This document shows positions 18,204 through 29,225 of a stretch of DNA of 32,000 nucleotides, piece after piece. The notes under the pieces were generated by a model. It saw only the letters and a program-made list of their open reading frames with translations. It made no database searches and was not told the origin of the DNA. The DNA is from Acaryochloris marina MBIC11017 (lineage in GTDB: Bacteria; Cyanobacteriota; Cyanobacteriia; Thermosynechococcales; Thermosynechococcaceae), in contig NC_009925.1 of NCBI RefSeq assembly GCF_000018105.1, forward strand, positions 4,410,001-4,442,000. The letters run 5' to 3'. The number at the start of each line of letters is the position of its first letter. Position 1 is the first letter of the stretch. Made by a program: the position numbers and the translations under genes.

Positions 18204-19949
18204 ATGCTCACCAAACTTGTCCGCTTCTTGGGCTCAATTAAGCTGGCCGTCCCAGTACTGGGTGCGATCGCAAGTATCTTAATTTGGGCGACGTTCTATG
18301 AGAGCAAGGTAGGGTCCCTTGTCGTCCAGCAGCAAATCTATAAGAGTCCCTGGTTTGGGGCCTTGATGTTTCTGCTAGCGGTCAATTTGGGGGTTTCCAC
18401 CCTCTCCCGTTATCCCTGGCGAGGGGCGCGGAAAGTGGGCTTTGCCCTCACCCATTTGGGATTAATCGTGCTGATTGCAGGGTCTGCAGCGGTGATTCAC
18501 CTCGGTGTGGAAGGACTTTTACTAGTCCGTACCGATCAACCAGCGAACCATTTGGTTCGGGTTGAGGGGGAATTATTAGAAGTGATGGATGACCAAGGCC
18601 AAGTACAACAGGCAGCGGTGATGGTAACGCCTGAGCGAATTATTTCTCCCACTCAATTCGCTGGGTTAAGGTTGTTGGACTATATCGAGAATTCCGTCGA
18701 AACGGTTGAATATCGTGACGGTGATGCCCAGGATGATCCAGCAATACGGTTGGTATTGAGTAGCGATCGCATGGGTCAAACCTTTGATCAGTGGTTATCG
18801 CCCGCTGCTGAAACGGTAGATTTGGGGCCAGCCCAACTGGAACTGTGGCAAGCTGCCAATCAGACCGATCTCCAACAGCTCTTGACCGATCCAACCCAAC
18901 AGCAAGCCCGCCAATCTGGAACCCTGATGTTCAAGATGGGAGACGTAGATACCCCGTTGGCCATTGATGACTTACGCCGTCAGGATGCCGTCATTAATGA
19001 TATCCAGGTTCACTTACTGAACGTGTGGCCTGATTTTCGCTTGGATGACCAGAATCAGCCGATCACAGCGTCTCAGGATTGGCGAAATCCAGCCTTAGAA
19101 GTAGAAGTGACCCAGGCCGATCTGCAAGAACGCTGGTTTGTCTTTGCTCAAGCTGGGCCGATCTTGGCGGGGGATGAGTCTTTACTGGATTTGGATTGGG
19201 AGTATCAAATCCCACCGCCCCCGACTAGCGACTACTTCCGAGTCGTGGTTGCCAATCAAAAGCTCTATTATGCAGCCCGCTCCTCTAAGTCTTTTACATC
19301 AGGGCCTTTGGTGATGGATCAAATGATTCAGCCGGGCTGGGCAGATTTTAAAATCACCCTGGCAGACTGGCTTCCCCATGGGAAGCGGATCCAAGAGCGC
19401 CTTCCCGCTCCATCTGGTGTTGAAGGAGTTCCGGCGTTGCAGGTGGCCTCAGCGGATGGGCAGCAATGGCTGACCTGGGGGGACTCAGCACTGATTGCCG
19501 ATGGTGCGCACCCTAAAATGGCGGCCTTTGGCCCTCGCATGCTGGCCTTACCCTTTCGGGTGGGTCTGGATGATTTTGTCGTTGAACGGAATGAAGGTAG
19601 CGACTCGGTGGCCATGTGGACGAGCCAAATTCGCATCGAAGATCTTCAGGGAGAATCTGCTCAAAAACGGTCGGTCTGGATGAATCATCCCACCTGGTAC
19701 CAGGGATGGAAAATTGCCCAAGCCTCTTGGAATCCTGGCGATTTGAACCAGTCCACCCTGCAAGTTAAACGGGAACCCCTATGGGTGACCGCTTTGACCT
19801 GGAGTGGCGCTTTACTGACCGTATTAGGGGTTGGCGTTATGTTTTATGGCCCGACCCTATTCAAAAAACGGTCAGCGGTGTTGGAGCAACCCACTGAGCC
19901 GATCACGGCTGAACCCACCCCTCTGCCCCTTGCACCTCAGGATGGATAA
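18204..19949 (+). CDS. ResB/Ccs1-like cytochrome c biogenesis protein (System II), long form
   Basis: 581 aa. The N-terminus LVRFLGSIKLAVPVLGAIASILIWATFYES, a second TM, a His-containing TM (LTHLGLIVLIAGSAAVIH), a large soluble loop and a C-terminal TM match ResB/CcsB topology. Its stop overlaps the next gene's start (TAATG). Confidence 0.75.
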   Translation: MLTKLVRFLGSIKLAVPVLGAIASILIWATFYESKVGSLVVQQQIYKSPWFGALMFLLAVNLGVSTLSRYPWRGARKVGFALTHLGLIVLIAGSAAVIHLGVEGLLLVRTDQPANHLVRVEGELLEVMDDQGQVQQAAVMVTPERIISPTQFAGLRLLDYIENSVETVEYRDGDAQDDPAIRLVLSSDRMGQTFDQWLSPAAETVDLGPAQLELWQAANQTDLQQLLTDPTQQQARQSGTLMFKMGDVDTPLAIDDLRRQDAVINDIQVHLLNVWPDFRLDDQNQPITASQDWRNPALEVEVTQADLQERWFVFAQAGPILAGDESLLDLDWEYQIPPPPTSDYFRVVVANQKLYYAARSSKSFTSGPLVMDQMIQPGWADFKITLADWLPHGKRIQERLPAPSGVEGVPALQVASADGQQWLTWGDSALIADGAHPKMAAFGPRMLALPFRVGLDDFVVERNEGSDSVAMWTSQIRIEDLQGESAQKRSVWMNHPTWYQGWKIAQASWNPGDLNQSTLQVKREPLWVTALTWSGALLTVLGVGVMFYGPTLFKKRSAVLEQPTEPITAEPTPLPLAPQDG

Positions 19950-21649
19950 TGAATCAACTGCAATTTTTATGGGGACTCTGTCTGGCGTTGGCCTTGGCGG
20001 TCACCCCTATCAGTCAATGGCAACCCCCAACCCAAACAGCGATTGATACCCTGGCTGTTCAGCTGGATGGTCGCAAAAAGCCCTTAGATACAGTGGCCCG
20101 GGAAACCGTCACCACGATTCATGGGTCATCGCGATATCAACTGGCTAGTGGTGAGGTTTTAGATGCGCCACAAATCTATTGGTCTTTGTGGCTAAACAGC
20201 CGGAATTGGAATGACGAGCCCTTTGTGCTGGTCAATTATCGCCCCCTCAAGGCCCAATTGGGACTGCCCTTGGAGCAAAAGCACTTTAGCTTTTCTACCC
20301 TGATCAATTCTAATTTGGGTCTAATCTTGCAACAAGCCCATACCAAACAGCTGCAAGAGCAACCCCTGACACGAGATGAACGAGAAGCTCTGACGCTTGA
20401 AGATCGCCTTAATTTGATGTTGGATACGGTTGGCAGCCAAAGCCTGCCTCTGGTGCCCCATCCCATGGATATCAAAGGAACTTGGGTCGGGATTACGGAT
20501 ACTGAACAGCTTTATCCGCCTGAGATGGCAGCCAAGATTCAAACCCAGTTTGAGCAGCTCAACCAGCAGTATCAAGCTCAGAGAGATGATTTAGACTCTT
20601 TGGCGGAGCCTGCGGCTCTATTGCAGCAGTCCCTAGCAGACTTAAGTCCTGAGATTTATCCAGCAATGGCCACGTTGCAACGGGAAGCCTTTTTCAATCA
20701 CTTCCATCCTTTTGGTAAAGCATGGAAACTGTATGGGATAGCATTCCTGGTCCTCCTCACTAGCCAACCCATTTCTAGCTTTAACTTGTATTGGACTGGC
20801 ATGGGAACCTTCCTCGGAGGCATCTTGATCCAAGCCTTTGGCTTTGGCCTGCGCATGCAAATTGCAGGCCGTCCTCCCGTTACCAATATGTATGAATCCG
20901 TGGTTTGGGTTGGCTTTGGGATTGCCGCCTTAGCCTTTTGCTTCGAGCTTCAGACCCGAGCCCGTTCCTATCTGTATGCGGCGGCTCCCCTTGCCGTCGT
21001 GTGCCTGCTGCTGGCCGATAGTTTACCTGCAGTTTTGGACCCCAGTATTGAGCCCTTAGTGCCCGTATTGCGAGATAACTTTTGGCTCAGTATCCACGTC
21101 CCCACGATCACCCTTAGCTATGCCAGCTTTGCTTTGGCCATGGGATTAGGGCATTTGGCATTGGTGCAATATTGGCGACACCCCCAGGGAGGGTCAACCG
21201 CCAGCGCCCTGTCCCGGCTTAATACTCGCGTCATTCAAGTGGGAATATTGCTGCTAACGACAGGCATTATTTTGGGCGGCATCTGGGCGCATTTTTCCTG
21301 GGGGCGATTTTGGGGTTGGGATCCAAAAGAGACCTGGGCTTTAATTGCCTTGCTTTGCTATTTAGCGCCTGTTCATGGTCGTTTAGCGGGTTGGTTAGGA
21401 CAATTTGGTATGAATGTGGCCAGTGTCTTAGGGTTTAATGCCGTACTGATGGCTTGGTATGGCGTTAATTTTGTGTTGGGAACAGGATTACATAGTTATG
21501 GATTCGGTACGGGCGGTTCTGCAGTGCTGATCACCGGTTTAGTCGGTATGGATAGCTTATTTGTGTTGGCAACCATTCTCCGCTATCGTTCTCAGCAGCA
21601 TCGTAGTGCTTCTCCCTCGGTGCCTGAAGTGCAAACTGCTGATGCTTAA
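19949..21649 (+). CDS. CcsA/ResC-like cytochrome c assembly (heme-handling) protein with a roughly 250-aa N-terminal extension
   Basis: 566 aa. Trp-rich heme-handling motif WGRFWGWDPKETWALI. Conserved TM histidines (SIHVPTITLSY, YLAPVHGRLAGW). N-terminal signal/TM followed by a soluble domain ahead of the 8-TM core. Confidence 0.85.
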   Translation: MNQLQFLWGLCLALALAVTPISQWQPPTQTAIDTLAVQLDGRKKPLDTVARETVTTIHGSSRYQLASGEVLDAPQIYWSLWLNSRNWNDEPFVLVNYRPLKAQLGLPLEQKHFSFSTLINSNLGLILQQAHTKQLQEQPLTRDEREALTLEDRLNLMLDTVGSQSLPLVPHPMDIKGTWVGITDTEQLYPPEMAAKIQTQFEQLNQQYQAQRDDLDSLAEPAALLQQSLADLSPEIYPAMATLQREAFFNHFHPFGKAWKLYGIAFLVLLTSQPISSFNLYWTGMGTFLGGILIQAFGFGLRMQIAGRPPVTNMYESVVWVGFGIAALAFCFELQTRARSYLYAAAPLAVVCLLLADSLPAVLDPSIEPLVPVLRDNFWLSIHVPTITLSYASFALAMGLGHLALVQYWRHPQGGSTASALSRLNTRVIQVGILLLTTGIILGGIWAHFSWGRFWGWDPKETWALIALLCYLAPVHGRLAGWLGQFGMNVASVLGFNAVLMAWYGVNFVLGTGLHSYGFGTGGSAVLITGLVGMDSLFVLATILRYRSQQHRSASPSVPEVQTADA

Positions 21650-21699: not shown

Positions 21700-22626
21700 A
21701 TGGCCGTTCTCACACCGGAAGAGGTGCAAACGAAAGTTCAACAGGGCATTTCTTTACAAGGAGCAGAACTCAGCAATATCAATTTGCAGGGATTCTCCCT
21801 GGATGATGGTCATTTCCCACAAGCCTATTTACGGGTGGCGAATTTATCCCAAGCCTCCTGTAATCGAGCCGATTTTACGGAAGCGATCTTGATCTTTGCA
21901 ACCCTCACGGGAATTAGCTTGCAGGATGCATTACTAACGGAAGCTCAATTTACCTCTGCCCGCCTTGACTCGGCTAATTTGATGGGGATTCATGGCGTGA
22001 AGCTCAAACTGCATGGTGCCCATTTGGATCAAGCGAATGCGGCCACAGCCATTTTGGAGTCGGTGGATTTAGCAGAAGCCACTGGCCAGTATGCCTCCTT
22101 CAGAGATGCCATTTTAATCAGAGCTGATCTGTCTCAGGGCGATTTCAAGGGGGCTAACTTTAGCCGAGCGAAGCTCAATGATGCCAATTTGAGTCAGGGA
22201 CAATTCTCAGAGGCCATTTTTGCCCATGCCCGCTTGGAACGGTCTCGCTTTGTACAGTCCAATTTACAAAAAGCAGATTTTACTGGGGCTGATTTAATCG
22301 GCAGTAACTTAGAGCAGGTCAATTTACAGGAAGCACAGCTACAGCAGGCCAGTTTTGATCATGTGCTCTTAGGGCAAACTTGTATGCGCGACGCTCGGTT
22401 GAACCATGCCTCTTTCTATAGTGCTCATTTAGAGCAGGCTGACTTAACGGGTGCTCAAGTAGAGCAGACAGATTTTCGGGATGCCAATTTGGAAAACACT
22501 CAACTTCACAACGTTGATTTTTTTAACACCATTGTGTCTGGCGCAATCTTTACCGATGCTAAAGGATTATCCAGTGAGCAGAAAGTACTACTGCGAAAAC
22601 AGGGCGCTCTAAATGTCCCTAAATAA
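21700..22626 (+). CDS. Pentapeptide-repeat protein
   Basis: 308 aa made almost entirely of A(D/N)LxX-type pentapeptides (ANLSQ ASCNR ADFTE AILIF ATLTG ...). Confidence 0.9.
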   Translation: MAVLTPEEVQTKVQQGISLQGAELSNINLQGFSLDDGHFPQAYLRVANLSQASCNRADFTEAILIFATLTGISLQDALLTEAQFTSARLDSANLMGIHGVKLKLHGAHLDQANAATAILESVDLAEATGQYASFRDAILIRADLSQGDFKGANFSRAKLNDANLSQGQFSEAIFAHARLERSRFVQSNLQKADFTGADLIGSNLEQVNLQEAQLQQASFDHVLLGQTCMRDARLNHASFYSAHLEQADLTGAQVEQTDFRDANLENTQLHNVDFFNTIVSGAIFTDAKGLSSEQKVLLRKQGALNVPK

Positions 22627-22988
22627 TGTATCTTTTTATACTTTTTTATTGGGCGTATTCTTTGCTAGAGAAACCGTAATTACTGATGTAATTTTTGCAT
22701 TGAAGTTATGCAATCGACGACTTTTATATAGTGTTAATTGTATTAATTGATACGACTCGACTGGTAATTATTTTTTACCTTTGAAGGCATATTTTGAATC
22801 TGCAGCTTAATGCTGTTTATGAATGTCAAAATTTCGACGATGCAACGCTTTGGGTGAAAGCATTTTGATGCTCGTTGAACGGTTGATGGTGCTTCGAGAA
22901 TGCTGTGAATCGGTGTTGCGATCGCACTCATCTCACTCTACTTTCTATTTCTCTTCTGAGGAATACCAAGATGACCTAACCTAAATAA

Positions 22989-23039
22989 ATTTCAAGATCT
23001 TAAAAGAGGTACTTGATTGCTCTTTTAAGATCTTGAAAT
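22989..23039. repeat. Perfect 20-bp inverted repeat (11-nt spacer) in the AT-rich leader upstream of the globin gene; candidate operator or RNA hairpin
   Basis: ATTTCAAGATCTTAAAAGAG (22989-23008) and CTCTTTTAAGATCTTGAAAT (23020-23039) are exact reverse complements. Each arm contains the internal palindrome AAGATCTT. The centre lies about 177 nt upstream of the ATG at 23191. Confidence 0.8.
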
Positions 23040-23190
23040 AGAAAGAGGAATTTCCCCTTAAGGAAGAGATGCTTGATCTGAATTTATCCCACTGAACAGC
23101 TATTAATCCCACCTTTGAAAAAAGATTAGACTCGGTTCAATTAATCTTTTGAATTAGCCCTTGAGCCCCATATCTTCAATAGGTAAATCT

Positions 23191-24207
23191 ATGACCTTAC
23201 AAGTTGAAATCCTTGAAAGTAGCTTTGAGAAAGTAAAACCTCAAGCTAATGAATTTGTTTCAAGTTTTTATAATCACTTATTCACGGATTACCCAGAGGC
23301 TCAACCTCTTTTTGAGGGAACAGACATGGAGAAGCAAGGTGGCAAGCTCTTGCAATCTCTGGTATTGGTGATTGAGAATTTGCGCAAACCTGATGCGTTG
23401 GGTAATGCTCTCAAAGGTCTGGGAGCCCGACATGTGAAATATGGGGCCTTACCGGAGCATTACCCCTTGGTGGGAGCGACCTTACTGAAGACGTTTGAAC
23501 AATACCTAGGGGATGCATGGACTGAAGAGGTTCAAACAGCCTGGGTGGATGCCTACGGAGCCATTACCACCATCATGTTGGACGGTGCAGATTATTCAGA
23601 GGCAGATGTCCAGCTCAAACCAGAAGCGCCACCGACTGAATCCGGCTTGCAAGTTGAGCTATTGGAAACGAGCTTTGCCCAAGTGAAGCCTGTCGCTAAT
23701 GAGTTTGCGGATCGCTTTTACGAGAACCTGTTCACTGATTATCCCGCTGCCCAACCCTTATTTGCGAATACAGATATCAAACAACAAAGCAAAAAATTGC
23801 TGCAATCCCTCGTGTTGGTTGTTGAAAATCTGCGTAAGCCAGATGCACTAGGAGACGCCCTCACGGGACTGGGGGCTCGGCATGTGAAATATGGCGCTTT
23901 ACCGGAGCATTACCCCTTGGTGGGTAATACCCTGCTCAAAACCTTTGAGGAATTTTTAGGGACTGCCTGGACTGATGATGTCAAACAGGCTTGGGTCGAT
24001 GCCTATGGGGCTATCAGCACCATCATGTTAGACGGTGCTGATTATTCCACAGCAGATTTAGATTTGAATTCAGCCTCCCCCGCTGCAGCCGCCTCACCTA
24101 GCAGCTTCTCCAGTGAGGCTTCAGAGCCTGAGCGACCAACAGGATTGTTATTAGGGCTGGCAGGTGGCGGCATTATTGCGGTCATTATTGCCATTCTGTT
24201 GGTCTAA
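23191..24207 (+). CDS. Tandem two-domain globin (Vitreoscilla Hb/flavohemoglobin-type globin fold x2) with a C-terminal transmembrane anchor and no reductase domain
   Basis: Start moved to the ATG at 23191. Each domain has FY(N/E)xLFTDYPxAQPLF (B10 Tyr, CD1 Phe), KLLQSLVLV(I/V)ENL (E helix with Gln), LGARHVKYGALPEHYPLVG (proximal His) and AWVDAYGAI(T/S)TIMLDGADY. The domains are offset by exactly 150 aa. A Ser/Pro/Ala linker follows, then GLLLGLAGGGIIAVIIAILLV. Confidence 0.85.
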   Translation: MTLQVEILESSFEKVKPQANEFVSSFYNHLFTDYPEAQPLFEGTDMEKQGGKLLQSLVLVIENLRKPDALGNALKGLGARHVKYGALPEHYPLVGATLLKTFEQYLGDAWTEEVQTAWVDAYGAITTIMLDGADYSEADVQLKPEAPPTESGLQVELLETSFAQVKPVANEFADRFYENLFTDYPAAQPLFANTDIKQQSKKLLQSLVLVVENLRKPDALGDALTGLGARHVKYGALPEHYPLVGNTLLKTFEEFLGTAWTDDVKQAWVDAYGAISTIMLDGADYSTADLDLNSASPAAAASPSSFSSEASEPERPTGLLLGLAGGGIIAVIIAILLV

Positions 24208-24226: not shown

Positions 24227-24874
24227 GTGGCCAAAACGAAAAAATCTTTTTTGAGCTTATCGGCTCTATTTAATGTCAGAAATACTGTGATTGTGCTGTG
24301 TTTAATTTTGATGGGTTGGTTGGGGGCCGCCTTTGCTTTAGACCACAAAACGATCTTTCTACCGGGCGTAACGTCTAATGGACATCTCTTATTTGAGGCG
24401 TCATGTGCCTCTTGTCATGAGGGGTTTAAGCCTGTGAGTAATGACACGTGCATGCGCTGCCATGAGGCAGAAATGGCAACGGATGCCCATGGACCCAAGA
24501 AGTTTCGAGATCTGCGCTGGGCTGCTGAACTAGAGAAATTGGAGGTATTAACGTGCACCACTTGCCACAACGAACATGTGCATATGTTTGATCGCGGGGT
24601 GCATCTAAAACCAGATCTCTGCATGATTTGCCATGAAGGCATTATTCAAGGGGAATTGGCCAGTCATAAAGGGTTGTCACCGGATGGATGTTGGACCGCT
24701 GGTTGCCACAATTACCACGACCATCGCAGTATTTCAACGGGCTTTTTACGTCAGAGTATGGGCCAAGCAGATATGTTGCCGAAGCCCGCATTACCGGCTC
24801 GCACGATTAAGCCTGAACTGGCGGCACCCCCTCAGCCTGACTTGGATAAAGAGCTTCTCGGAGGGCGGGCATGA
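24227..24874 (+). CDS. Membrane-anchored multiheme cytochrome c with five heme-attachment sites (4 CXXCH + 1 CX4CH)
   Basis: CASCH (24404-24418), CMRCH (24449-24463), CTTCH (24554-24568), CMICH (24620-24634) and CWTAGCH (24689-24709). N-terminal signal anchor TVIVLCLILMGWLGAAFA. The start is uncertain: GTG at 24227 is preferred over ATG at 24164, which would overlap the globin TM by 44 nt. Confidence 0.8.
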   Translation: MAKTKKSFLSLSALFNVRNTVIVLCLILMGWLGAAFALDHKTIFLPGVTSNGHLLFEASCASCHEGFKPVSNDTCMRCHEAEMATDAHGPKKFRDLRWAAELEKLEVLTCTTCHNEHVHMFDRGVHLKPDLCMICHEGIIQGELASHKGLSPDGCWTAGCHNYHDHRSISTGFLRQSMGQADMLPKPALPARTIKPELAAPPQPDLDKELLGGRA

Positions 24875-25653
24875 GGAGCTGGCTTCTAAGAGGGGTGTTG
24901 TTATTGCTGCTCTGGAATGGGTTGACGGTTTCTGTCTTGGCGGTTGATCAGGCTCAGCTCCAGTCTATCAATCAAAGCTGGTCCCAAAGTGCTCATGCCT
25001 TAGCTGACGTGAACTGTTCGAGCTGTCACCAGAATAAATCCACGAAACAGGTGCTGAAGCGGCCCAATCATGAAAGCTGTCAATCTTGCCATAAAGCGCA
25101 AGTGGATACCTTTTTACTCGGTAAGCATGGTATCCGCCTCTTGGAAGGACAAACGGCACTCACCCCTGCCTTGGCCCATCTGCCGATGCAAGCAGCTGCC
25201 CATGACAAACAGATGAACTGTAATGCTTGTCATGACGTTCATTCAGTGAAAACGTTACCCGCCTCGGTTGACTCTTGTCTGACCTGCCACAAGGACACCC
25301 ATTCACTGAACTACAAGAACTCCCGACATGGGCAATTGCTGCAAGAAGAAGGGGCACTTCCCCGGCCTTCGACTGTTTCAACGACTTGTGCGACTTGCCA
25401 CCTGCCCCGCCAAACATCGGCATCGGGGACGGTGACGGTCAACCACAACAATACCTTCACGTTACTGCCACGCGATCGCATGGTGAAAGAGGTCTGTATG
25501 AATTGCCACGGCATGGAATTTGCCTACAACAGCATTTTTGATGATGACTTAGTGGAATCGAATTTTGCCCGACCCCCTACCTTATCGATGGACACTCTGA
25601 AAATGGTGCGTGCGCTAGAACAACAACGGTCGGGCAATTCCAAATCAGAGTAA
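24871..25653 (+). CDS. Secreted hexaheme cytochrome c (paired-CXXCH type)
   Basis: 260 aa. Signal peptide MRSWLLRGVLLLLLWNGLTVSVLA. Six CXXCH motifs: CSSCH, CQSCH, CNACH, CLTCH, CATCH, CMNCH. Its ATG overlaps the upstream stop (ATGA, 24871-24874). Confidence 0.85.
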   Translation: MRSWLLRGVLLLLLWNGLTVSVLAVDQAQLQSINQSWSQSAHALADVNCSSCHQNKSTKQVLKRPNHESCQSCHKAQVDTFLLGKHGIRLLEGQTALTPALAHLPMQAAAHDKQMNCNACHDVHSVKTLPASVDSCLTCHKDTHSLNYKNSRHGQLLQEEGALPRPSTVSTTCATCHLPRQTSASGTVTVNHNNTFTLLPRDRMVKEVCMNCHGMEFAYNSIFDDDLVESNFARPPTLSMDTLKMVRALEQQRSGNSKSE

Positions 25654-25703
25654 TCCATCCCATCGAAACGAATCAGATGCATCTCATTGAGAGGAGACAC
25701 AAG

Positions 25704-26357
25704 ATGACTTTGACACGAAATTGGTTTAGAACGTTGCGTTCCAGAACCCTCGGCTTTTTTGCCCTAGCTGCAGCCATTTGTTTCACCGCTGTGGCCTGTA
25801 GTGGGGGTGCCGAATCCCAGGCTACTGGGGGGGTAAAACCCGAATTAGTGGCTGATTATATCCATACTGCTTTAGCTTCCGATCGAACGGCCTATACCAA
25901 GCATGTGGTTAACCGAGCCAAAAAACTAGAGGGTAAGCCCAAGAAAGATGGTGTGCTGGCCATTGAAGCCACCGAAGGCTGGGAAAGCAATGATGGTATT
26001 CCTTTGCCTGCTCAAATGTTTCGGCTCGGATCTGAGATTGCCTCCGAAGCAGACACGGCTTTTACCTATAACCTGATCTCAACTTGGTACATTAACGACG
26101 CTCAAGGTCCTAAAAATGATTTTGAGAAAAAAGCCATCCAACAGGTTGAGAAAACGGGTGAACCTTTCAAGGAGTACCAGGAAGTAGGAGGTAAGAAGTA
26201 TTTTTCGGCCCTCTATCCCGATAAGGCAGTAGCAGAAGCCTGTATTACTTGTCATAACACCCACCCTGTACACAAAGAACGCTATCCCGATAAGGTCTTC
26301 AAAATGGATGATGTGATGGGCGGCATCATGATCAATATTCCTTTGGAAGGTGCTTAG
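25704..26357 (+). CDS. DUF3365-type c-type heme lipoprotein (Tll0287-like PAS-like heme domain)
   Basis: Start placed at the ATG at 25704, preceded by GAGGAG. Signal peptide with lipobox (FTAVA-C). Single C-terminal CITCH followed by GGIMINIPL, plus the LPAQMFR pattern typical of DUF3365. Confidence 0.7.
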   Translation: MTLTRNWFRTLRSRTLGFFALAAAICFTAVACSGGAESQATGGVKPELVADYIHTALASDRTAYTKHVVNRAKKLEGKPKKDGVLAIEATEGWESNDGIPLPAQMFRLGSEIASEADTAFTYNLISTWYINDAQGPKNDFEKKAIQQVEKTGEPFKEYQEVGGKKYFSALYPDKAVAEACITCHNTHPVHKERYPDKVFKMDDVMGGIMINIPLEGA

Positions 26358-26496: not shown

Positions 26497-27105
26497 ATGA
26501 AGCCTAGGTTTTCAACTCTTATTATTCTGACGTTAGTGGTCGCAGCTATTTTGACCCCCTTTGCATTAAGTGGGGTTTATATTCCGTTGCTGCGCGATCG
26601 CAACTTCAATGCCTTGATCGTTCTACAAACGGATCTGTACAAGTTGATTACGGGGTTTGTCGTTCTGGCCCTTGTCTTTTTTGAACTGGCCCTCGCACTG
26701 CGTAAACGAGGGCGCCGGTGGAAAATTGCAGTGCCGGGTTCTATTTTGTTGTGGCGCAGCTTGCATATTTTTGTCGGTGTCGCTTTAGTGGCCACCGTTT
26801 TGCTCCATACCGGTGGTGCGGTTGGCGATAACTTTAATGCTCTCTTTCTCTGGGTGTTCTTTGGCGTCGCCCTATCAGCCCTAATGGGCGTGGTTGCAGA
26901 AACGGGCATTTTAGAATCTTCCCAGAAATACTTTGGGTTGGTGCCTCAAAGCTGGCAGGGTTTAGCGAAACGGTTCCCCAAGGTTTCGAAAGGGCCTCTC
27001 ATTCGCAAACTGCGTGCGATTTGGTTATCAACCCACATTATCTTGGTCAGTATGTTTTCCGTCATGCTTGGGTTTCACATTTTTGTGGCCTTTTATTTCC
27101 AATAA
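26497..27105 (+). CDS. Five-TM membrane protein, putative diheme b-type cytochrome (DUF4405-like)
   Basis: 202 aa. His90/His104 in TM3 (H-IFVGVALVATVLL-H) and His180/His194 in TM5 (H-IILVSMFSVMLGF-H) are two H-X13-H pairs, the spacing used for bis-His heme b ligation in cytochrome b of bc1 complexes. Confidence 0.5.
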   Translation: MKPRFSTLIILTLVVAAILTPFALSGVYIPLLRDRNFNALIVLQTDLYKLITGFVVLALVFFELALALRKRGRRWKIAVPGSILLWRSLHIFVGVALVATVLLHTGGAVGDNFNALFLWVFFGVALSALMGVVAETGILESSQKYFGLVPQSWQGLAKRFPKVSKGPLIRKLRAIWLSTHIILVSMFSVMLGFHIFVAFYFQ

Positions 27106-27179: not shown

Positions 27180-28811
27180 CTAGTAATCGAAGTCTCCACC
27201 CATGCCAGCACCGGTAGGAGCATTTTCCTTCGGCTCAGGCTTATCAGAAATAATGCACTCAGTGGTGAGGACCATACCAGCAATAGAAGCGGCATTTTGC
27301 AGCGCAGAACGAGTCACCTTTGCAGGATCGACAATGCCAGCGGCAAACATATCCGTGAACTCATTCACTGACGCATCAAAACCGACATTGAACTCTTTTT
27401 CACGAACGCGTTCAGCGATAACGGCACCATTTTGGCCAGCATTCTCAGCAATGCGCTTTAGAGGTGCAGTTAAGGCCCGTTCAACGATAGTGGCACCAAT
27501 CAGCTCTTCGCCAGTTAAGTTATCCGCAGCCCAACTTGCAAGTTGAGGACCAAGATGAGCCAAGGTGGTTCCACCACCGGGAACAATCCCTTCTTCAACA
27601 GCCGCTTTAGTGGAGTTGATGGCATCTTCTAGGCGGAGCTTTCGATCCTTCATCTCAGTTTCAGTGGCAGCACCGACTTTGATCACCGCAACACCACCGG
27701 CCAATTTAGCCAAGCGCTCTTGCAACTTCTCTTTATCGTAGGAAGACTCGGTCTCATCCATTTGACGACGAATTTGCTCGCAGCGAGCTTGGACGTCGGC
27801 CTCATTGCCTTCGGCAACAAGGGTAGTGGTGTCTTTCGTGATGGTGATGCGACGAGCTTGTCCCATCATTTCTAGCTTGGCAGTCTCTAGTTTGAGACCT
27901 GCATCTTCAGTAATCACCTGACCACCAGTCAAGACTGCAATATCTTCCAGCATGGCTTTACGACGATCGCCGAAGCCAGGTGCTTTCACGGCAGCTACAT
28001 TCAACACACCCCGTAAACGGTTGACGACGAGGGTGGCTAAGGCTTCTTTCTCAATATCCTCAGCAATCACCAACAAGGGCTTACCTGCCCGTGCAGCCTG
28101 CTCGAGTACAGGCACTAAATCTTGCACGAGGGTAATTTTCTTGTCGGTCAGTAGGATGTAGGGCTCGTCTAGCACAGCTTCCATCCGCTCTGTGTCAGTC
28201 GCGAAATAAGGAGAAATATAGCCTTTCTCAAAGCGCATCCCTTCAGTGACCTCCAATTCGGTGGTCATGGACTTGCCTTCTTCAAGGGAAATAACGCCTT
28301 CTTTGCCAACCTTATCCATCGCATTGGCAATCATTTGGCCGACTTCATCGTCATTACCTGCAGAAATCGTTCCCACTTGAGCAATGGCGGTGGAATCTTC
28401 AACAGAGCGAGCATTCTCAGCGATTTTCTCTACAAGAAAGCCAGCAGCTTTCTCAATGCCACGCTTGAGGGAAATTGCATTCGCACCCGCAACTACGTTG
28501 CGCATCCCTTCTTTGACCATGGCATGGGCAAGGACGGTAGCTGTTGTGGTGCCATCTCCTGCGGCATCATTCGTTTTGGAAGCCGCTTGACGAATCAGGG
28601 CAACCCCTGTGTTCTCAATGTTGTCTTCTAGTTCAATTTCCTTAGCAATGGTGACACCATCATTGACAATCTGAGGGGCACCAAATTTCTTTTCTAGAAC
28701 AACATTGCGACCTTTAGGGCCTAATGTCACCGCAACAGATTCACATAGAATATCCATCCCTTTCTCAAGGGCGCGACGAGCATTCTCGTTATAAATAATG
28801 CGTTTAGCCAT
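27180..28811 (-). CDS. groEL: Chaperonin GroEL (Cpn60)
   Basis: 543 aa. [40 protein letters not shown] and a Gly/Met-rich C-terminus. Located downstream of groES. Confidence 0.97.
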
Positions 28812-28913
28812 GGAAGCTCAACCTCAAACTTAAAGGAGTAACAGCGAAGTTAGACAAAATAAAATTGCCCAGTTGAATGGGCAGAACGAATCGAAGGATG
28901 ATATTACGCTTGT

Positions 28914-29225
28914 CTAGTTGACGATCGCCAAAATATCTTTTTCAGAAAGCAGTACATACTCTTCACCGCCGAGCTTGACATCTGTACCGGCGTACTTGGA
29001 ATACAGAACTTTGTCGCCTTCTTTGACATCTAAGGCTTGGCGAGATCCATCGTCGCCCCGCTTACCTGGGCCAACAGCAGTAATTTCACCCACCTGAGGC
29101 TTCTCTTTGGCCGCATCGGGCAAAATAATGCCACCTGCAGTTTGCTCTTCTGCAGCACTGACTTTGACGAATACGCGATCACCTAAAGGCTTGACTGTAG
29201 AGACGCTTAAGGAAATAGCTGCCAT
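28914..29225 (-). CDS. groES: Co-chaperonin GroES (Cpn10)
   Basis: 103 aa. [12 protein letters not shown]...GGIILPD...GEITAVGPG...[11 protein letters not shown] is the canonical Cpn10 pattern. Confidence 0.97.

Follow-up and report, generated by a model that had tools for sequence, protein, structure and literature searches.

Nitric oxide (NO) dioxygenase chemistry is the established function of the globin lineage that includes Vitreoscilla haemoglobin (VHb) and the flavohaemoglobins (Hmp, FHP). Flavohaemoglobins carry their own reductase and the partners of VHb-type globins are debated; the electron supply of single-domain bacterial globins is a long-standing open point. Here we analysed a stretch of 32,000 nt from the chromosome of Acaryochloris marina MBIC11017 (NC_009925.1, positions 4,410,001-4,442,000 of the forward strand; this whole stretch is hereafter called the window), in which the gene AM1_4406 encodes two globin domains of this lineage in tandem, followed by a hydrophobic C-terminal tail. 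The gene is already annotated as 'globin domain protein', and the globin call itself is hence not new. With little doubt, AM1_4406 is the tail-anchored di-globin of a conserved multi-haem cytochrome operon. This operon, headed by the globin gene, is the most informative feature of the locus and was missing from an earlier note on the same DNA. Because the conserved cluster names a membrane cytochrome chain together with its own maturation machinery, it offers a concrete set of partners and makes the question of electron supply testable.

Among the described systems, Hell's Gate globin I (HGbI) of Methylacidiphilum infernorum (PDB 3S1I/3UBC) and the HGbRL globin (3WFW) have the same 3-on-3 (3/3) F-family fold, and their Tyr B10, Gln E7 and His F8 align with those of AM1_4406. 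HGbI is, however, a soluble single domain, whereas AM1_4406 consists of two domains, a tether and a tail and heads a multi-haem operon. VHb and the flavohaemoglobins belong to the same globin lineage, with the same distal Tyr/Gln and proximal His, but the FAD/NAD(P)H module of flavohaemoglobins has no counterpart in AM1_4406, for which the proposed electron source is the membrane haem chain. In 2017, Hade et al. reportedly described multidomain truncated haemoglobins in actinobacteria (cited in PMC7475203). These proteins also carry tandem globin units, of the 2/2 T family rather than the 3/3 F family and unlike AM1_4406 with its membrane tail. Animal globin X and the N-acylated globins (references in PMC7475203) are held at membranes as well and have a proposed role other than O2 transport; they are eukaryotic, are attached by N-terminal lipidation and have no cytochrome operon, in contrast to AM1_4406 with its predicted C-terminal transmembrane helix. 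The globin of syNOS (Synechococcus PCC 7335, PDB 9Q05), which gives weak sequence and fold matches to our protein, is a 3/3 globin from a cyanobacterium that is coupled to a redox enzyme, and an NO dioxygenase-type role has been reported for it (PMC6104048); unlike AM1_4406, syNOS has a single globin, fused to nitric oxide synthase oxygenase and reductase domains, and no membrane anchor.

In the full-text literature, of which few subscription journals were covered, we found no description of the tail-anchored form, of its spread over ~300 cyanobacterial genomes or of its fixed association with a multi-haem operon and maturation genes. The view of the earlier note that a membrane-tethered di-globin is unusual is right for the literature, but not for the sequence databases: a search for relatives of AM1_4406 in 185,579 species-representative genomes returned 310 stretches, and tandem copies are common among the nearest relatives. 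In an exhaustive search of 1.84 billion cluster representatives, from which the 149 nearest relatives were read, tandem globins are common among HGbI-like globins; 44 of the 149 are tailless di-globins, of which some are fused to PAS or pentapeptide-repeat domains, and a few proteins have 5-14 globin domains.

The di-globin AM1_4406 and its C-terminal tail

AM1_4406 corresponds to positions 4433191-4434207 of the MBIC11017 chromosome (Hernandez-Prieto et al. 2016, PMC5295598, Table S3), the gene coordinates of that table being offset from window coordinates by 4,410,000, and its parts are listed in Table 1 together with the other features of the locus. The gene starts with ATG, which in the alignment coincides with the first residue of many homologues; an upstream TTG at 23161 was rejected as the start, the resulting extension being unsupported by any homologue N-terminus. 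A repeat search reported one direct repeat only, its two copies starting exactly 450 nt apart. The two domains align without indels and are identical at 103 of 133 amino acids (77.4%, 30 differences) and at 283 of 399 nucleotides (70.9%), with identities of 79, 89 and 45% at codon positions 1, 2 and 3, respectively, and the length of 133 amino acids was kept without indels in all 261 domains examined. The two full globin domains of about 77% identity at a 450-nt offset, as described in the earlier note, were therefore recovered unchanged.

The Pfam Globin profile (PF00042; cut-off 22 bits) matched two stretches of AM1_4406 with E 1.8e-38 and 132 bits, which places both domains in the globin superfamily. 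In an alignment of 30 homologues, Tyr B10 (Y27/Y177, in the motif FY), Phe CD1 (F41/F191, in PLF), Gln E7 (Q49/Q199) and the proximal His F8 (H81/H231, in RHVKYG) were invariant in both domains, in agreement with the key Tyr, Phe and His pointed out before; phmmer aligns Tyr B10 and Gln E7 with residues 29 and 50 of HGbI. Searches against sequences in the PDB gave HGbI (3s1i/3ubc, E 2e-25) and then the HGbRL globin (3wfw), followed by VHb (2e-17), Ralstonia flavohaemoglobin (FHP, 1e-15), thermoglobin and Campylobacter Cgb. An AlphaFold2 (AF2) model built on the 30 homologues, with a mean predicted local distance difference test (pLDDT) score of 82.5, contains two globin folds and ends in a helix; the linker (residues 145-150) and the tether (299-327) are disordered in it. 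A single domain of this predicted model superposes on HGbI in Foldseek with a template-modelling score of 0.89 (root-mean-square deviation 1.5 A, 38% identity), and neuroglobin and VHb also match (scores 0.74-0.89), so that a 3-on-3 fold is predicted.

Since profile, PDB sequence and fold searches all put both domains in the single-domain/flavohaemoglobin lineage, the earlier assignment to the VHb/flavohaemoglobin type is correct, and AM1_4406 is, judging by its sequence, a tandem globin of this class (3/3, F-family) with a C-terminal hydrophobic tail. A flavohaemoglobin proper was ruled out because there is no FAD/NAD(P)H reductase module: no FAD/NAD Pfam domain was found in AM1_4406, and the NCBIfam flavohaemoprotein model NF009805 covers only the globin part (21-135 of 399) with 153 bits against a cut-off of 432. 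The Bac_globin (2/2) and Protoglobin (sensor) profiles both scored under their own cut-offs, which led us to reject a truncated globin and, with 17.3 bits for Protoglobin against a cut-off of 25 and only a linker and the hydrophobic tail after the globins, also a globin-coupled sensor.

The most hydrophobic 19-residue segment of AM1_4406 (Kyte-Doolittle mean 2.83) lies within the Gly-rich GLLLGLAGGGIIAVIIAILLV, and the stop codon follows directly. We compared this end among 121 family members, namely the window protein and its best 120 database matches. In 118 of them an uncharged tail of 19-30 residues (median 23) is found at the extreme C-terminus, with GG in 107 tails, GGG in 72 and Lys/Arg (K/R) within 8 residues upstream in 80; of the three exceptions, P0023 and P0030 have no hydrophobic end, and in P0040 a short charged extension comes after the hydrophobic stretch. 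Across the family, a tether of 14 to 208 residues separates the tail from the last globin. No hydrophobic N-terminal segment was present in any of the 121 members, and neither a signal peptide nor a twin-arginine motif was found in the 118 tail-bearing ones, in which the maximum N-terminal hydropathy over 15 residues was 1.05. The Ser/Pro/Ala-rich linker and 21-residue hydrophobic helix of the earlier note were thus recovered, and a hydrophobic tail is conserved in nearly the whole family. Such a tail is the signature of a tail-anchored protein, with membrane insertion predicted; the lack of an export signal, together with the K/R residues ahead of the helix, would place the globins in the cytoplasm.

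The multi-haem cytochrome operon

For the analysis of context we examined the best 80 of the 310 loci, searching them by tblastn with the neighbouring proteins of the window. All 80 belong to cyanobacteria or metagenome-assembled genomes, mainly marine benthic or filamentous forms (Leptolyngbya, Symploca, Spirulina, Xenococcus, Hyella, Geitlerinema BBD, Acaryochloris and others). The globin is followed, in this order, by genes for a penta-haem cytochrome c (mhc1), a hexa-haem cytochrome c (mhc2), a Tll0287-like protein and a membrane protein with four invariant His (4-His protein), which were found in 78, 77, 73 and 69 of the 80 loci, respectively, the misses sitting at contig ends. The operon genes lie on the strand of the globin everywhere except in one locus (L067), where they are inverted, and mhc1 follows on the same strand in 77 of 78; in the window the gap between the globin and mhc1 is 19 nt. 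Haem motifs are equally constant, with four CxxCH and one Cx4CH in mhc1 (77/78 loci), six CxxCH in mhc2 (74/77) and one CxxCH in the Tll0287-like protein (71/73).

The GTG start of mhc1 at 24227 was inferred from the 215-residue length of its homologues, and the Tll0287-like protein AM1_4409 starts at 25677 in our reading as against 25734 in the annotation (4435734-4436357; PMC5295598, Table S3). Sequence matches of mhc2 in the PDB were weak (HAO-like protein and octahaem nitrite reductase), and the Tll0287-like protein gave no useful match against PDB sequences. Proteins with c-type haem have to be extracytoplasmic. Given their c-type haem and their hydrophobic signal-like N-termini, with a lipobox in the Tll0287-like protein, mhc1, mhc2 and the Tll0287-like protein would all be located outside the cytoplasm. 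Tll0287/DUF3365 has been reclassified as a haem-bearing Cache domain whose stand-alone members behave as redox proteins (bioRxiv 10.64898/2026.02.01.703092).

The number of globin domains at the head of the operon is not fixed. The same operon occurs with a tail-anchored mono-globin of 187 aa in Moorena SIO4G3 (L083, 4777-5340, + strand) and with a soluble, anchorless mono-globin of 147 aa in Thalassoporum PCC 7367 (L081, 5044-5487, + strand), and tri-globin versions occur in other genomes. Since the operon carries mono-, di- or tri-globins, and the anchor rarely varies, the link between globin and cytochromes is the constant feature, and the mono-globins of Moorena and PCC 7367 are natural variants that may show what the anchor and the second domain contribute.

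In the last protein of the operon, H90, H104, H180 and H194 were invariant in 68/68 and 33/33 sequences. Its 413 database homologues are all 'hypothetical' and without a Pfam domain, and the named ones are all cyanobacterial. Judged from K/R-rich loops and AF2 helices, H90 and H180 would lie towards the cytoplasmic side of the membrane, and H104 and H194 towards the outer side. The spacing H-x13-H ligates two stacked haems in the cytochrome b of the bc1/b6f complexes, in cytochrome b561 and in the NOX/MsrQ ferric-reductase domain, with which the 4-His protein shares the paired His on two transmembrane helices but no significant sequence or fold similarity. Pfam searches with E values up to 5 yielded only Ni_hydr_CYTB and DUF4405 (E 0.2-0.4), no PDB sequence matched at E up to 10 and the best Foldseek E was 1.2. 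The geometry is that of a two-haem transmembrane relay, which makes the family a candidate for a new type of transmembrane di-haem protein; as there is no sequence or fold homology to known cytochromes b, haem binding is something that we infer.

Published read counts under control, microoxic and hyperoxic conditions are 109/42/215 for AM1_4406 (log2 -1.36 and +0.97) and 416/70/1567 for AM1_4409 (log2 -2.55 and +1.91; PMC5295598, Table S3), indicating that operon transcripts rise with O2. A scan for promoters and terminators gave a number of sites not above that of shuffled sequence. The cluster was also considered as a horizontal-transfer island, a possibility rejected because its GC content and its GC at third codon positions (GC3) are like those of the flanks.

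Further genes accompany the operon. Upstream in the window lies a ResB-like/CcsA-like pair (18204-21649), a second, dedicated pair of maturation proteins that travels with the operon in most genomes; it is usually divergent from the operon and co-directional in Acaryochloris. The CcsA-like protein, with an N-terminal extension of 300 residues, matches TIGR03144 under the cut-off of the model. By analogy with Wolinella, which has dedicated lyases, the unusual Cx4CH site in the penta-haem protein may require this pair. A pentapeptide-repeat copy of ~40% identity was found within 10 kb of the globin in 48/80 loci. In other genera the cluster also includes a Rieske [2Fe-2S] lipoprotein with a twin-arginine (Tat) signal after CcsA (36 loci), a thioredoxin-like gene after the 4-His protein (50 loci) and a ChaN-type haem-binding protein (18 loci), none of which is adjacent in the Acaryochloris window. 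About 13 loci have an extra ORF that clusters with globins; the example in L006 is a divergent soluble globin with His rather than Tyr at B10.

Table 1. Features of the AM1_4406 locus (positions in the window unless a locus is named)
Feature	Position	Strand	Basis or remark
ResB/CcsB-like cytochrome c biogenesis protein, dedicated paralogue	18204..19949	+	Pfam ResB, E 2.6e-15; near globin in 55/80 loci
CcsA-like haem lyase/exporter, 566 aa, long N-terminal extension	19949..21649	+	Pfam Cytochrom_C_asm; 51/80 loci
Pentapeptide-repeat protein, possible globin partner	21700..22626	+	Pfam Pentapeptide; directly upstream of globin
Tail-anchored di-globin ORF AM1_4406, 338 aa	23191..24207	+	ORF translation; Pfam Globin in two stretches
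Globin domain 1, residues 3-135	23197..23595	+	Pfam; AF2 pLDDT ~80-97; Tyr27, Phe41, Gln49, His81 invariant
26-nt stretch TTACCGGAGCATTACCCCTTGGTGGG, probable short gene-conversion tract	23449..23474	+	Exact identity with 23899-23924
Inter-domain linker, 17 aa	23596..23646	+	Length and sequence variable among homologues; AF2 pLDDT <50 at residues 145-150
Globin domain 2, residues 153-285	23647..24045	+	Best PDB sequence matches; Tyr177, Phe191, Gln199, His231 invariant
Second copy of TTACCGGAGCATTACCCCTTGGTGGG	23899..23924	+	Exact identity with 23449-23474
Ser/Pro/Ala-rich flexible tether, residues 286-317	24046..24141	+	Hypervariable; AF2 pLDDT <50 at residues 299-327
Predicted tail anchor, Gly-rich GLLLGLAGGGIIAVIIAILLV, residues 318-338	24142..24204	+	Kyte-Doolittle mean 2.83
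Penta-haem cytochrome c (mhc1), 215 aa, N-terminal hydrophobic segment	24227..24874	+	Pfam Cytochrom_c3_2; 4 CxxCH + 1 Cx4CH
Hexa-haem cytochrome c (mhc2), 260 aa, signal peptide-like N-terminus	24871..25653	+	Pfam Cytochrom_c3_2, MtrC/MtrF-like, Paired_CXXCH, c554
Tll0287-like (sCache_haem) c-type haem protein AM1_4409, lipoprotein-like signal (…AVAC|SGG)	25677..26357	+	PF11845, E 4e-21
Five-helix membrane protein, 202 aa, putative di-haem b transmembrane relay	26497..27105	+	Four invariant His, H-x13-H on two helices
Extra cluster genes of other genera (Rieske, thioredoxin-like, ChaN-type, extra globin ORF)	L006 5183-5692, 14366-14896, 14914-15393; L003 15722-16603	-, +, +; +	

Possible routes of electrons to the globin

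The operon context suggests an unstudied route of electrons to a bacterial globin. We propose that AM1_4406 is a haem-b protein whose two HGbI/VHb-like domains would be held on the cytoplasmic face of the membrane by the tether and the tail anchor. Its gene is the first of the operon, whose penta-haem, hexa-haem and Tll0287-like mono-haem products would make up an extracytoplasmic chain of c haems, and the four invariant His of the membrane protein would be the ligands of two stacked b haems. Together, the operon products may form one membrane-spanning haem wire of which the globin would be the cytoplasmic, ligand-reactive end. Electrons would then reach the globin haems through the membrane cytochrome, which would do the work of the FAD/NAD(P)H module in flavohaemoglobins, and the Tyr-B10/Gln-E7 pocket would turn over O2 and NO, either as an NO dioxygenase or as an O2-reducing valve. 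In this scheme the topology, the haem binding by the 4-His protein, the physical association, the direction of electron flow and the substrate are the parts that we infer. Given the globin pockets, the conserved tail, the adjacent c haems, the 4-His protein, the lack of a reductase domain and the O2-dependent transcripts, the haem-wire reading is the most economical one. We give the explanation as a whole, that is, an anchored di-globin heading the operon plus the haem wire, a probability of about 0.45; the electron-wire mechanism taken by itself is tentative and may well turn out to be wrong.

An extended form of this explanation is doubtful, yet would have wide consequences. It holds that many, mostly marine and mat-forming, cyanobacteria possess an undescribed membrane wire of ~16 haems, composed of the Tat-exported Rieske protein (in many loci), the 5-, 6- and 1-haem cytochromes on the outer or lumenal side, the new di-haem b protein and the tandem globin, the last being the terminal site of O2/NO reduction. 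If this were true, the globin would provide catalysis at the end of an electron valve, respiratory or photoprotective in role and switched on at high O2. The cluster would also contribute a rare example of multi-haem c-type cytochromes in cyanobacteria, an unannotated family of membrane proteins and, in chlorophyll-d Acaryochloris, an O2-responsive system.

Several points weigh against the haem wire. Haem binding, localisation and interaction of the components are predictions, and co-occurrence in an operon is no proof that electrons pass between its products. The 4-His protein matches no known cytochrome b family, its relay role being read from the spacing of its His residues alone. Tethering is not indispensable, because the operon of PCC 7367 has a soluble, anchorless mono-globin, and the PAS and pentapeptide fusions of related di-globins suit sensing or regulation no less than catalysis. 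Finally, the O2-dependent expression, which comes from one study with two replicates, is a hint.

One alternative is that the globin is an autonomous NO dioxygenase or O2 scavenger close to the membrane, re-reduced by generic cytoplasmic reductases, while the operon would reflect co-regulation or a shared demand for haem. VHb, HGbI and Cgb work without a fused reductase, and the conserved distal Tyr/Gln pocket as well as the soluble mono-globin in the same operon are in line with such a role. That the globin heads the cytochrome operon in 78 of the 80 loci, across many cyanobacterial orders and with very short intergenic gaps, is not what this alternative would predict, and the near-universal tail with its Gly-rich, helix-packing-like motif points to a specific membrane partner; we consider autonomy improbable. 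We regard it as similarly unlikely that the di-globin is a non-catalytic, ligand-gated regulator, sensing O2 or NO and switching the cytochrome complex or the pentapeptide partner. The fusions of close di-globins to PAS/diguanylate-cyclase-sensor regions and to pentapeptide-repeat domains would be natural under such regulation, as would the recurrent pentapeptide neighbour and the weak, sub-threshold matches to Protoglobin and RsbRD_N; the domains score, however, as F-family Globin and not as sensors (Protoglobin at 17 bits against 25), the protein has no transmitter domain and a copy number varying from 1 to 3 would be odd for an allosteric switch.

Two further alternatives assign the globin to other processes. 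The tethered domains might buffer haem b or hand it to ResB/CcsA for the maturation of the twelve neighbouring c-type haems, for which the dedicated ResB/CcsA pair nearby, the thioredoxin of 50 loci and the ChaN-type haem-binding protein of 18 loci could be cited. To our knowledge no globin serves as a haem chaperone for system II, and a protein that only carries haem would have no need of an invariant pocket, Tyr B10 and Gln E7 included, which makes this possibility very improbable. Still harder to credit is an exported globin, with the tail as a sorting signal or as an N-out anchor and the globins acting beside the c-type cytochromes outside the cytoplasm. Although the operon partners are extracytoplasmic and the tail is Gly-rich and follows a low-complexity region, like some sorting signals, the N-termini of the 118 tailed homologues have the properties given above, and sorting signals of the PEP-CTERM and GlyGly-CTERM types were rejected because a signal peptide, a basic cluster after the helix and a match to an NCBIfam sorting domain are all lacking. 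Compared with these alternatives, the haem-wire explanation remains the one that we prefer.

Duplicated domains, unusual relatives and adjacent genes

Comparison of globin domains 1 and 2 (D1 and D2) of AM1_4406 by the Nei-Gojobori method gave a proportion of synonymous differences (pS) of 0.79, which is saturated, and a proportion of nonsynonymous differences (pN) of 0.146, the low pN against the saturated pS indicating strong purifying selection on both copies. Between the window protein and its homologue in A. marina NIES-2412 the identities were 0.95 for D1-D1 and 0.92 for D2-D2, with cross-comparisons at 0.74-0.79. The saturated pS, together with the orthology of D1 to D1 and of D2 to D2 across Acaryochloris, shows that the duplication in this genus, or else the most recent complete homogenisation, took place long ago; a recent duplication is refuted.

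This bears on the 26-nt stretch that the two copies have in common, for which the earlier note had proposed either a fairly recent duplication or gene conversion. The identity is exact, and when the synonymous codons of copy 2 were shuffled in 20,000 trials a run of at least 26 nt appeared in 0.4% of them (P ~0.004), so that the run is beyond chance. In a related Acaryochloris (L002) both copies have CCA/GTC where both window copies have CCG/GTG, and in other genera synonymous sites of the stretch are free to vary, for which reason universal constraint on the nucleotides was rejected too. The first proposal is thus set aside by pS, while the second is favoured by the shuffle test and by the pattern in L002: the identity probably reflects a short gene-conversion tract and not constraint at the nucleotide level.

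Over the whole family, the identity of D1 and D2 inside one protein has a median of 0.85 and reaches 0.985, and between proteins the mean identity is 0.764 for domains in the same position and 0.752 for domains in different positions. When compared with all domains of homologues below 90% identity, the two domains of one protein are each other's closest match in 19 of 102 di-globins. A domain profile detected three globin domains in 19 of the 121 proteins, and in the tri-globin of Acaryochloris CCMEE 5410 the identity of D2 and the third domain (D3) is 0.96, from a recent duplication of D2. At the level of sequence, the domains of this family evolve in concert while their copy number changes (1, 2 or 3), both processes being visible in one gene.

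Some relatives depart further from the di-globin plan. Giant poly-globins with 9-14 HGbI-like domains (P0241, 2461 aa; P0390, 3326; P0245, 1842; P0242, 2352) were found among the nearest cluster representatives, one giant being a predicted eukaryotic protein (XP_011670837-like) and the others coming from JGI metagenomes under the names 'hemoglobin-like flavoprotein' or 'methyl-accepting chemotaxis protein'. Fusions of a di-globin to C-terminal pentapeptide repeats (P0259, P0395, P0251, P0249 and P0266) occur in part in Spirulinaceae, and one such fusion is encoded on a Bacteroidota-like TARA contig, where its neighbours include SusC/TonB-type and GH65 genes but no cytochrome genes. These fusions and the recurrent pentapeptide neighbour link two families of unclear function.

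AM1_4405 (22868-22984), a short way upstream of the globin, is annotated as a hypothetical protein of 38 aa. It is among the most abundant transcripts of A. marina, with 10120/1755/8134 reads under control, microoxic and hyperoxic conditions, a transcription start site at 22802 and an end at 22996 (PMC5295598). A perfect 20-bp hairpin (22989-23039) follows it, and the region 22802-23039 (+ strand) folds with z = -5.5. A conserved small protein was rejected, as the frame is not kept in other Acaryochloris, where only ~130 nt of DNA (22738-22866) are similar at 72-83%; a scan of the whole window against Rfam gave no match. The region is probably a non-coding RNA, with read-through possibly extending into the globin operon.

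Directly downstream of the operon, on the opposite strand, lies groESL (27180-29225, - strand). GroES (AM1_4412, 4438914-4439225) goes up in microoxia (log2 +2.4), which is opposite to the behaviour of the globin operon (PMC5295598, Table S3).

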